Below are positions 4,045 to 56,945 of a stretch of DNA of 64,000 nt, piece after piece. Position 1 is the first letter of the stretch, and each line of letters begins with the position of its first letter. The stretch lies in assembly GCA_964016885.1 (NCBI GenBank), contig OZ024743.1:115940001-116004000 (forward strand), given 5' to 3'. The position numbers were made by a program, and so were the translations under genes. The notes under the pieces were generated by a model that did not search any database, was not told the DNA's origin, and saw only the letters and a program-made list of their open reading frames with translations. Source of the stretch: Eledone cirrhosa (taxonomy: Eukaryota).

Positions 4045-4092
4045 AAAATGACCGGTTTCGATGGGTCTGCAAAAGCCATCTTTTCAAATGTT
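4045..4092 (-). ncRNA. Hammerhead ribozyme, U3:A8 core variant
   Basis: Reverse complement of 9550-9597. Confidence 0.65.
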
Positions 4093-5202
4093 GATTAATA
4101 TTAAGAAAAATTAATTAATAATACGAAGAGTTACAATTTGAGACTTGAAAATTCAAGTATAAAATTCATTGTGGGATTTCATAGCAGTTTTCATCTAGGT
4201 AGCAACAACAGGTTGACTGCTGTGTCCCTTTCTGGTAGTGAATGAGAAGTTATTTGGGGTGTGGGTTATTTTATAAAGGTCAGATTTAGCAATAGCCAGC
4301 TGCTGGTCAGTGAGGGGGTGGAAGCAATATACACACACATACCTTCATCCACACATACATACACATACATATACATATATATATATATATATATATATAC
4401 ATATACACACATACATACACACACACATACATATACATACACACACACACACATATATACACATACACACACACACACACATATATATATATATATATAT
4501 ATATATATATACACACACACACACATATATATACATACACATACATCCAGATACACACATACATACACACACACACACACACACATATATATATATATAC
4601 ACACATATATATATATATATATATATATATATATATACACACACACACACACACCCCCACACATACATACACACACACATATATATATACATACACACAT
4701 ACAAACATACACACACACACACACACACATATATATACACACATACACACACATATATATACACACACACACACACACACATGCATATATATATATATAT
4801 ACACATACGCATACATCCAGATACCCACATACATACACACACACACACACACACGCACACACAATACATACATCCACATGCACACACATACTCACACACA
4901 CACACACACACATACATACACCCACACACAGAGAAATGGCCTTCAAATATATATATATATATATACATACAGACACATATATTTTTTCCATAATATAAGA
5001 AGTTGGGGCAGTGAAATTAAAATAATTCTGTGTGCGCATATATATATAGATATACGCGTGTGCACGTGCAGGGTTTAACATGGATGTGTTGGTCACACAA
5101 AGGCATGGTCTGTCAATGAATAAACCTGATTCTACAGAATTGGTCTCTGGTCTTTAATAGTAGTGATTCCGTGCGTATGTGTGTTTATATTTTATGACAA
5201 TT

Positions 5203-5600
5203 CTATTGGGGTGATAACCCGTTTAGTTTTGGTTTAAATTTGTTAAGGAATAGATTTTCTTTGTTTATTCTTTGTTGTTGTGTGAACGAATCTGAGCACT
5301 TGTAGAAGGGGAAGATTTTAAAGTTGGGTAGTGTCATTCCTGCGCAGTTCGCAATATGGCTGCTCAAGGGGATTTTTCTTGTGTTAGCGTCCCGGATTTG
5401 TTGGCGGTGGATGGTCATTCTTTTGCGTAATGAGGTGCCCGTCTGTCCTATGTAGTTGTGTTTGCACCCACCGCAAGTTATTGCGTAAATCAAGTTCTCC
5501 GAGTTGCAGGTGAAATTGTTTTTTACTGTAAATGTTTGGCCATCTTTGAATGTAAATGTTTGTCCTTCAGTGAGGTAGAGGCACGTTCCACAGTTAGGTT
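5203..5600 (-). CDS. PLE GIY-YIG endonuclease domain, frameshifted off the RT ORF
   Basis: NCGTC...CNSENLIYAITCGGCKHNYIGQTG...RKRMTIHR...E..F...KPKLN. Confidence 0.85.
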
Positions 5601-54504: not shown

Positions 54505-55078
54505 AAATGGGAAAAATGAAATTTCATTTCTCACTCTTAGTACGGCTGATACTTATATGTAAGTATGTATACGTTATACGTACATAAATATATGTATACA
54601 GACGTACAGTAGTATGTATATACATACATACATGCACACATATATATATGTACGTATTGGTTTACCGAACATTTATTATAATGCTCGGTTTGTTTGTAAA
54701 CAAACAGCCCGAATTATTAGCCGTACAGTGTTCGGCAACCATCGCTGCCCTATTTGTAAAACACTGACACAGGTATGATGAACTAGTTTCTAGCTTATTA
54801 GCTGTCATCAGCATTCTATACCTTCCTGTCAGTTGATTGAACGTTTGAAAGTATATACTTTCCTTATGCATATTAACGGCTGAGCAGCCTAATTTGCATA
54901 TCGAGTGAGTTAGTAGGCCGGACGTACCGAAAGCGAACCGGGCGTACAAACAAACCGAGCATTATAATAAATGTGAGGTAAACACATACGTACATATATA
55001 TGTGTGTGCATGTATGTATATACATACTACTGTACGTCTGTATACATATATGTATGAACGTATACATACTTACATTTA
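54505..55078 (-). mobile_element. Family-D element on the minus strand with inverted arm; HHR at 54775-54817
   Basis: Reverse complement reads gaatg-CTGATGA-c agc taataa gct a-GAAAC-ta-GTT-cat. 54945-55078 is inverted. Confidence 0.8.
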
Positions 55079-55099
55079 TATATATACATATACGTACAT

Positions 55100-56945
55100 A
55101 TAAATATACAAAAATCACACAAAATCACAATATAACCCCACCACTAAATCACCCACAAAGCAGCACTCATTCTCTCTCTAACATTAATTACAATAAGAAT
55201 AGCTCGTATGATTGTAATTGCAGAAATAGAAGCGTTTGCCCCTTAAATGGCTACTGTTTGATTAATATTGTAATATATAAATGCACTGTGTCTACTACTG
55301 ACTCCAATAAATCATATAAATGATGTACATCGAACGCATTTAAGAAAAGAAATTTACGAGCACTCCAGTAGCTTTAAAACAACTAAACTAGCTAACACCA
55401 CATCTTTAGCTGAAGCAGTAAATAACTATACAAAGAGAAACAAATAGATTTCAAGCTATCGTGGGATACCATTCTGCAAAGCACTCCATATCTTGGGAAC
55501 AGGAGAGAATGCAGATTATGTTCCGTAGTGTTCTTGGAAATTACTAAATCTAAGGACGATCTATTGAATAAAGGACAAGACTGATTATAGCTTGTAATCA
55601 CCGTATACGAAAAACATTTAAGTACTATAAACCTAATTAAACATTCTAAATAGCAGCTTACTATAGCTCTATGTAACGTACCGTTTTGTTACTATCCCCT
55701 TCTCCTAATTATACGCCTTCCTGTTAATTTTTGAACCTTTTAATTTTTTAGTTTCCATAGATTCATGCATTAGTGACTAAGGGCATCAAGGTACATAACC
55801 ACCTGTAATTGCTTGGGTATACATGTTTCTATGTATGATAAGAGAATATAAAAAAAATATATTTATATGTATATATATATATATATATATATATATATAT
55901 ATATATATATATATATATATATATGTATATGTGTATGTGTGTGTGAATGTGTATGTACATGTATGTGTGAGTACATGTATATATGTATGTATATGTATGT
56001 ATATATATATATATATATATATATGTATGTGTGCGTGTATGTATGTATATGGATATATCAATGTATACGTATGTATGTTTTTATGGAATATCAATGTAAT
56101 TATACTTCTATCTATATATGTGTGTATATGTACTTTTGTCATCAAAGAAAATTATGCGTTTTGGCTATATGTCAACATGCATTAATCTGGGTTTGATTAC
56201 TTATACATAGACCCACTTGAAAATATTTACCATTTTATATTTTATGATGCATCATACGCTATATTATACTATATACAATGTACCATACTGCACTATATTA
56301 TATTACATTATATTATATTATTATATTATTGTATTTTATTATCTTATTATAATTCTTTTTATCTTCTAATATACTATCCTTCCTAGATATGACCATTAAT
56401 TTACCTGTCTATATTTATCCTAGTTATTTCCGTATATTTTATATTTATTTATATTCAACTAAAAACCCCATACAACACAACTCAACATATAATTGTTTCA
56501 TCCGTTTTTAAACTTCACTCCACCATCTACATTCCACTATCAATCCAACAATCCCTTTTCTTCATAGCTTCTTCATAGTAATTCTATTTTTAACACCATT
56601 CAACCATTCTATTCAAAAGGTCATGACCTCAACTAAAGTGAGTTATATTTCCTCTTAACATCATACGGCAAAACACCCTTTGATTGTTTTGTTCTTCAGC
56701 TACCTCCAAATAAGGTCATATAACTCAATTTACTATTGATTTTGAATAGAATTTTCATTGCTTCTGACAACGGCTGACGATATGCACGTAGGTAAATATA
56801 TTCCTTATTTGATATTTTTTAATTAACCTTACATAGATCGATAACGAAATATGCGTACAATGTATTATTATCACCTAGAAACGATCGTAAAGCAGTCAAG
56901 CATATTCCTAATGACTTGACTTTTTATTTCATTGCTTTAACTTAT
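55100..56945 (+). mobile_element. PLE 3' fragment: decayed GIY-YIG (~55200-55640), UTR and HHR
   Basis: CNCRNRSVCPLNGYCLINIVIYKC with stops downstream; 3' end homologous to family H. Confidence 0.8.
56757..56896 (+). ncRNA. Hammerhead (family H) with C3/A8 mismatch, probably impaired
   Basis: attgctt-CTGACAA-cggctgacgat...atcaccta-GAAAC-gatc-GTA-aagcagt. Confidence 0.6.

Follow-up and report, generated by a model that had tools for sequence, protein, structure and literature searches.

Hammerhead motifs with a compensated U3-A8 core pair in Penelope-like retrotransposons of Eledone cirrhosa

A 64,000-nucleotide stretch of Eledone cirrhosa DNA (GenBank assembly GCA_964016885.1, contig OZ024743.1, positions 115,940,001 to 116,004,000 of the forward strand; hereafter, the window) was analysed for hammerhead ribozyme (HHR) motifs in which the core UUGANAA takes the place of CUGANGA, so that the tertiary pair between positions 3 and 8 would be U3-A8 (U3A8) instead of C3-G8 (C3G8). 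The window has 36% G+C and many microsatellites, in an assembly totalling 3.0 Gb, and is filled by a patchwork of retroelements, many of which form inverted pairs. The original prediction had listed eight core 7-mers, and all of them are present. The coordinates given for those on the minus strand were left-hand ends, and position 3 lies at 9555 (+), 4087 (-), 20546 (+), 45452 (-), 45960 (+), 46347 (-), 54120 (+) and 56764 (+). Judged by sequence and surroundings, these motifs are genuine type I hammerhead sequences that occupy the 3' terminus of Penelope-like retrotransposons (PLEs), and the core pair seems to have been exchanged in more than one PLE lineage. Four families were distinguished, A (9555 and 4087), B (45452, 45960, 54120 and 56764), C (20546) and D (46347), with the following features in the window (RT, reverse transcriptase).

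4045..4092, - strand: mirror copy of the family A HHR, not a separate insertion (inverted duplication 3940-6155 / 7490-9702, 99% identical)
5594..7558, - strand: reverse transcriptase of the Neptune-like PLE of family A (RVT_1, E 3e-7; GLKF, DKG)
7470..8441, + strand: family A RT thumb, CX4CxxC linker and GIY-YIG endonuclease (GIY-YIG, E 3e-6), about 1.1 kb 5' of the HHR at 9555
9550..9597, + strand: family A type I HHR, U3:A8 (UUGAAAA), with a stem II of at least 5 bp, the palindromic minimal stem III ACCGGU, a GUC site at 9592 and a weak stem I
18794..18894, - strand: mirror copy of the family C HHR, with A6->G and GAAA intact
20539..20641, + strand: family C HHR, U3:A8 (UUGACAA), decayed (G12->U, broken stem III)
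45324..45459, - strand: family B long-arm HHR, U3:A8, an intact young copy with stem I UUGCUU/AAGCAG, a 103-nt arm II, the palindrome ACGAUCGU and a GUA site at 45331
45953..46092, + strand: family B copy, U3:A8, stem III palindrome decayed
46310..46355, - strand: family D HHR, U3:A8, decayed (relatives UUGAAAA-GCAG/CUGC-GAAACCGGUA)
52687..53604, + strand: endonuclease region of a Hydra-like PLE, 5' of the HHR at 54120 (CxCX5C, CxxC-E, CxH)
54112..54250, + strand: family B long-arm HHR of the C3:G8 subfamily
56757..56896, + strand: family B copy with a C3/A8 mismatch, a lone variant within the U3:A8 clade (endonuclease remnant at 55213-55637)

The motifs were scored with a strict HHR descriptor in which positions 3 and 8 were left free, G17 was excluded and a palindromic or 5-bp stem III was required; an earlier, stricter motif scanner missed most of the sites. 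The claim that stems I and II and the GAAA...GUH elements are in place in every copy applied to three of the eight motifs (9555, 4087 and 45452), and the other five are decayed. At 20546 TAAA replaces GAAA (G12->U) and stem III is broken, the stem III palindromes of 45960 and 46347 are broken, and stem II bases are damaged at 54120 and 56764. The copies at 9555 and 4087 together form one inverted duplication, and their stem I is weak (2 bp, a C.U mismatch and 2 bp). The complete motif was present in genomic relatives of every one of the four families, whose members carry the type I core N3-UGA-N7-N8-A...GAAA...UH with a Watson-Crick pair at positions 3 and 8, either U3A8 or C3G8. Helix III is the palindrome ACCGGU in families A and D and ACGAUCGU in family B, and family C has a 5-bp helix III instead. 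For family A, 15 genome matches were listed, with TTGAAAA in every alignment spanning the core. Family D gave 2833 first-look genome candidates and family C 4370, relatives of the latter showing GAAA, the 5-bp stem III, a CCCC/GGGG stem I and a GUC site. A loose anchored pattern for family B returned 7239 matches, some of them overlapping.

The hammerheads sit 0.3-1.5 kb 3' of RT/GIY-YIG genes. When 238 motifs were grouped into 21 clusters, a same-strand endonuclease was found upstream in 23/70, 7/55, 11/34, 1/12 and 3/9 copies of clusters 0, 1, 2, 5 and 6, mostly 0.4-1.5 kb away, the flanks examined being 1.5 kb for most copies. By their motifs, and with no reference proteins in the tree, families B and C would be Hydra-like and families A and D Neptune-like PLEs. 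The DKT motif, the CxCX5C linker and the CxxC and CxH motifs around E/N, all features of the Hydra clade, were found in B, C and the element ending at 43833 (the family C fragment does not cover DKT), and (TA)n flanks were seen at Hydra-like elements. Family A carries GxKF, DKG and the CX2-5CxxC linker before GIY-YIG, as Neptune elements do. The placement of family D as Neptune-like rests on its tree position and on the endonuclease upstream of its relatives, 51-57% identical to that of family A; for both A and D, Nematis remains an alternative assignment. The family A element (3940-9702) is a young Neptune-like PLE with a 654-codon open RT frame and a low copy number (the 15 matches listed). 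Many Hydra-like families are apparently present in this genome, though the Hydra clade has been described as small.

In an unbiased sample of 80 evenly spaced 10-kb genome stretches (800 kb), 24 descriptor matches were found, against one in three shuffles (2.4 Mb) used as control. Twenty-one of the 24 were C3G8, three were U3A8 (from two insertions) and none was mismatched. The window itself gave seven matches, three being copies already named (9555, 4087 and 45452) and four C3G8 motifs. Among the 21 clusters, 13 were C3G8 and eight U3A8, and none had a mismatched majority; in the 15 untargeted clusters the figures were 11 and four. Seven clusters consist of one copy each, and cluster 9 (three copies, two of which had been chosen as mismatches) was assigned to C3G8 through its relatives. 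The original prediction had also held that this covariation would be missed by searches for CUGANGA. This is correct in so far as 3/24 sample motifs and 8/21 clusters are U3A8, but C3G8 motifs escaped the Rfam models too. Rfam hammerhead covariance models gave no match at the gathering score in the window and no hammerhead among the 150 best of 269 matches at E<=5, and an intact family C copy had no hammerhead match either. Because C3G8 copies were missed as well, this failure is not specific to U3A8.

The four combinations of positions 3 and 8 were then counted over the whole genome in family B. Paired states greatly outnumbered mismatched ones, with 4264 C3G8, 1053 U3A8, 56 C3A8 and 41 U3G8 copies, and reversed-pattern controls gave no match (here and with the B-U and family C patterns described below). 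The predicted Watson-Crick covariation of positions 3 and 8 was thereby borne out, with mismatches in 97/5414 pattern matches for family B, 0/24 sample motifs and 0/21 clusters. A chi-square on the 2x2 table of copies is meaningless as a test, because the copies are not independent. The 97 mismatches were sorted by subfamily, 60 by script and 37 by eye. In the C3G8 clades there were 49 C3A8 copies (1.1%, G8>A) and 38 U3G8 copies (0.9%, C3>T), and in the U3A8 clade seven C3A8 (0.7%) and two U3G8 (0.2%), one further mismatch belonging to another family. Background transitions in 86 family B copies amounted to 2.0% for C>T, 1.9% for G>A, 0.8% for T>C and 1.0% for A>G, which are upper figures since they include subfamily polymorphism. 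The mismatch rates are at or below this background, and therefore the mismatched copies fit decay after insertion. The same holds for the motif at 56764, where the C3/A8 combination is indeed present, but in one degenerate copy that falls within the U3A8 clade and not as a lineage.

A tree of 120 family B copies (30 per state, with positions 3, 7 and 8 masked) resolved three clades, two of C3G8 and one of U3A8. All 30 U3A8 copies fell in one clade (SH-aLRT 98) and the mismatched copies were dispersed. This indicates that the family B counts reflect one switch on one branch, not thousands of events. A search for C3G8 members of the U3A8 clade yielded none, the two pattern matches obtained being unrelated. 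The pattern for family B-U gave 685 matches, with U3A8 in 98 of the first 100 and A, C or U at position 7 in 70, 27 and 1 of them; that for family C gave 373, with U3A8 in 94 of the first 100 and A, C or U at position 7. Position 7, on which the ribozyme places no constraint, varies freely among amplified subfamilies, and positions 3 and 8 change together between lineages. Other long-arm families with the stem III of family B carry G8 wherever the core is readable, which suggests that U3A8 is the derived state in this family.

Several other possibilities were considered and set aside. No amplified mismatch lineage was seen: a C3A8 copy has the very same body as the three identical U3G8 copies L139, L148 and L164, which thus represent a young subfamily. 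Nor are the mismatches mainly truncation artefacts, the 5' strand of stem I being intact in 23/30 and 25/30 mismatched copies versus 25/30 and 21/30 paired ones. A CpG route, in which deamination of C7-G8 would produce A8 first, found little in its favour and was not adopted. CpG transitions reached 5.3% (7/132) in family B and 2.7% (13/479) in family C versus about 2% at other C/G sites, C7-G8 is kept in three C3G8 clusters (4, 10 and 11), and the B-U clade retains no C3-C7-G8 ancestor. On a separate point, many family B copies (L142, L128, L145, L093 and L130) are truncated exactly at the 5' strand of stem I, where they abut a different repeat with an ATT-rich tail, which suggests a preferred target or microhomology behind these 5' junctions.

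One important question is how many times the pair has switched. In a tree of RT plus endonuclease (10 rows, 552 columns, without family D and cluster 13), monophyly of the U3A8 elements was rejected (p-AU 0.0008, two changes). The U3A8 elements are not one clade in this tree, and therefore the pair switched at least twice. In the endonuclease tree (19 rows) the state changes at least three times. Families A and D are sisters, both with GAAACCGGUH, and may share one U3A8 origin. We conclude that there were at least two independent switches, probably three or four. The proposal of several independent families stands in that four families carry U3A8; their copies are not independent events, however, family B accounting for a single switch and A and D possibly for one origin. 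Family B could not be rooted by proteins because the outgroup loci lack a usable endonuclease: three of these long-arm loci had none in 3.5 kb, and the fourth only an inverted one.

The fold was assessed from base changes and by folding. Of the 500 cells scored across 23 family B sequences, 95.8% were paired, 39 double changes were counted, and slid controls reached at most 44%; the shuffle control is inflated by the relatedness of the sequences, and the middle helix of arm II, where the clades cannot be aligned, was left out of the score. Among the double changes are exchanges between G-C and A-U in stem I and between C-G and U-A at positions 3-8. Arm II of family B has 95-116 nt and formed a long rod in most of the 31 copies folded (z-scores -2.3 to -3.9). 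Its helices differ by clade, but the tip (GAU / ANUU loop / UGUAA-UUACA / UAG / AUC) and the C.A and C.C mismatches at the base are common to every clade, and the tip is possibly a candidate protein site. An arm II with this tip was seen at 45324-45459, 54112-54250 and 56757-56896 and at loci L343, L197 and L141, and further long-arm families occur at L384-L387, L309 and L217. The 10.1-11.1 pair is the usual G-C in families A, C and D, and C.A in family B (U-A in one subfamily); mismatches here are tolerated in some natural HHRs (PMC3088659). Helices I-III all form when the family C relative L248 is folded (z -2.3), and helix I of family A is weak in folding (z -0.9). No loop I-loop II tertiary contact was evident from sequence, although no test was aimed at it; loop 1 is poorly defined in minimal PLE hammerheads (min-HHRs; PMC4209133). 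A17 is present in five of the eight U3A8 clusters (1, 5, 13, 18 and 19), where a U3-A17 pair would extend stem I over the cut site. Such a predicted trap would be analogous to the inhibitory C3-G17 trap that has been proposed in hammerheads (PMC3884650).

The C3-G8 tertiary pair forms in the active hammerhead fold (PMC3884650). We consider it likely that C3-G8 was replaced by U3-A8 in at least two PLE lineages because only elements able to fold a cleavage-competent core amplify. The ribozyme would cut tandem PLE transcripts at GUC or GUA; in families A, B and D stem III would form only with a second copy (as a dimer), and family C could cut as a monomer. PLE min-HHRs with a palindromic stem III work weakly, as dimers (PMC4209133), and the hammerhead of an anole PLE needs the protein of the element (PMC11167929). 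A master copy would pass through a brief mismatched state, without amplified descendants, and be rescued by the second change. Lineages losing the 3-8 pair would then not spread, only compensated states would amplify, and most genomic copies would be dead, decaying insertions.

A number of observations weigh against this interpretation. In the anole PLE, mutating the hammerhead left insertion in vitro unimpaired, and RNA-seq showed no ends at the cut site (PMC11167929). Stem I of family A is weak, family B has C.A at 10.1-11.1 where G-C is usual, and U3-A17 pairing was predicted in 30 B-U copies with a mean probability of 0.79 in a secondary-structure model. The independent events are few (two to four), the direction of change is unrooted, and in the endonuclease tree a single U3A8 clade was not rejected (p-AU 0.083). 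The cluster counts include single copies and the kinship-scored cluster 9, and HHR variants with G17, or with a stem III that is neither palindromic nor of 5 bp, are invisible to the descriptor.

Some of these points would be accommodated if the hammerhead fold, with its 3-8 pair, were retained because it gives the PLE RNA structure or binds protein, cleavage being weak or dispensable; selection could act on the fold and not on cleavage. The anole hammerhead, which cuts only with protein and whose mutants still insert in vitro (PMC11167929), the weak activity of PLE min-HHRs in vitro (PMC4209133), the predicted U3-A17 trap in five of eight U3A8 clusters, and the non-canonical 10.1-11.1 pair together with the conserved distal motif of arm II all agree with such a role. 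The 3-8 pair, however, belongs to the catalytically active conformation (PMC3884650), and G5, A6, A9, G12-A14, A15.1-U16.1 and H17 are kept in all families, which selection for the chemistry would lead one to expect, though the descriptor required them; we regard this explanation as unlikely. It is less likely still that the ribozymes are dead relics in which AT-biased mutation fixed C3->U jointly with G8->A in a small number of master copies, with no selection at all. Among the changes in these repeats C>T and G>A predominate, the window has a low G+C content and only two to four switches are documented, yet none of the clusters or subfamilies has just one of the two changes fixed while any of the four bases occurs at the neighbouring position 7 of amplified subfamilies, stems I and II show compensated changes between subfamilies, and the whole motif is kept in young, near-identical copies. 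Chance matches in AT-rich DNA can be given almost no credence: TTGAAAA and GAAA are common words in the window and five of the eight named copies fail the strict descriptor, but the shuffled control was nearly free of matches, the motifs have a fixed location 3' of PLE genes and they have hundreds to thousands of conserved relatives. Returning to selection for a cleavage-competent core, a bolder version would be that the repeated, strictly paired switching reveals a requirement for cleavage in PLE mobility in vivo, against its dispensability in vitro, and that the arm II tip of family B binds the RT/endonuclease protein, which would release the U3-A17 trap and turn cleavage on; we hold this combined proposal to be doubtful.

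Additional C3G8 hammerheads, absent from the original prediction, were found in the window at 15920 (-), 39227 (-)/43833 (+), 16755 (+), 17212 (+), about 17886 (+) and 33399 (+). Two of them are listed here.

15871..15925, - strand: intact C3:G8 HHR of PLE type, taken as internal control
43825..43889, + strand: C3:G8 HHR (mirror copy at 39171-39235), 3' of a Hydra-like PLE open reading frame (RT 40308-41672 with DKT, endonuclease 41708-42391)

At 39031-44084 lies a Hydra-like PLE whose RT and endonuclease occupy different frames and which carries a C3G8 hammerhead at each end. Short tandem or inverted repeats with a period of about 450 bp, at 16752-16789, 17209-17246, 17883-17920 and 33396-33433, carry C3G8 hammerheads with GAAACUAGUA; no endonuclease was found upstream in 13 copies of this cluster, and these repeats may be non-autonomous, retrozyme-like elements. 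The palindrome at 22869-23085 derives from the 3' half of a family C-related hammerhead (GAAACGGCC...GCCGUC GGGG), with a different arm II and the core missing. A CUGAUGA with a 3-bp stem II and GAAAC at 34804-34852 (-), with stems I and III not evident, is a possible decayed hammerhead. Two copies of a non-LTR (lacking long terminal repeats) element with endonuclease and RT frames, which we take to be L1/Tx1-like, occupy 24053-32997.

The natural U3-A8 swap has already been published, in PLE hammerheads too (PMC3088659, PMC4209133). Perreault et al. (2011, PMC3088659) reported C3-G8 -> U3-A8 covariation in several natural ribozymes, active in vitro; theirs is the same swap, described in the portion available to us as isolated examples without lineage counts within families. 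Cervera & de la Peña (2014, PMC4209133) described about 1,300 U3-A8 matches in Schistosoma mansoni, the Cercyon variant, and aligned a UUGAAAA motif of this species beside a similar CUGAAGA motif of S. japonicum. The Cercyon and other PLE min-HHRs share with the present motifs a type I HHR in the terminal repeat, a palindromic minimal stem III and U3-A8. In the present genome the swap is found in four families of the window plus four bystander clusters, and sister subfamilies with C3G8 exist; arm II has about 100 nt in family B compared with 7-8 bp there, and stem III of family C is a stable 5 bp.

The Hydra-clade PLEs of Craig et al. (2021, PMC8557442) share DKT, CxCX5C, CxxC/CxH, (TA)n and a 3' HHR with B, C and the 43833 element. 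In File S2 of that work, however, 26/26 Hydra rows read CUGA-G8 with loops II of 3-10 nt, and none is U3A8 or long-armed. Family A shares GxKF, DKG and the CX4CxxC linker with Neptune-clade PLEs, an assignment by motifs only. In the Anolis Poseidon PLE (PAc, PMC11167929) single mutants at position 3 or 8 were dead and the double swap partly rescued activity; that swap was an engineered G3-C8, unlike the natural U3-A8 described here, and cleavage was dispensable for insertion in vitro. No report of repeated switching within a genome, U3A8 Hydra-like PLEs, an arm II of about 100 nt with a conserved tip, or U3 together with A17 was found in the literature covered; Lünse et al. (2017), Przybilski & Hammann (2007), Nelson & Uhlenbeck (2008) and Martick & Scott (2006), which lie outside it, may describe U3A8 kinetics, a long arm II or U3/A17. 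Nothing further on U3A8 came from PMC7151607, PMC6765202, PMC2920678 and bioRxiv 10.64898/2026.07.22.740005. The finding is largely a known one: new PLE hammerheads with a published core variant, to which a natural experiment within one genome and an odd long-armed subtype are added.

Descriptors restricted to CUGANGA undercount these motifs, as the share of U3A8 among intact sample motifs and among clusters indicates. PLE hammerheads show weak activity in vitro, and insertion of one PLE does not require cleavage. Sister subfamilies that differ by a compensated core pair (about 1,000 versus about 4,000 copies), with no amplified intermediate, provide a natural experiment on selection for the active fold during transposition.

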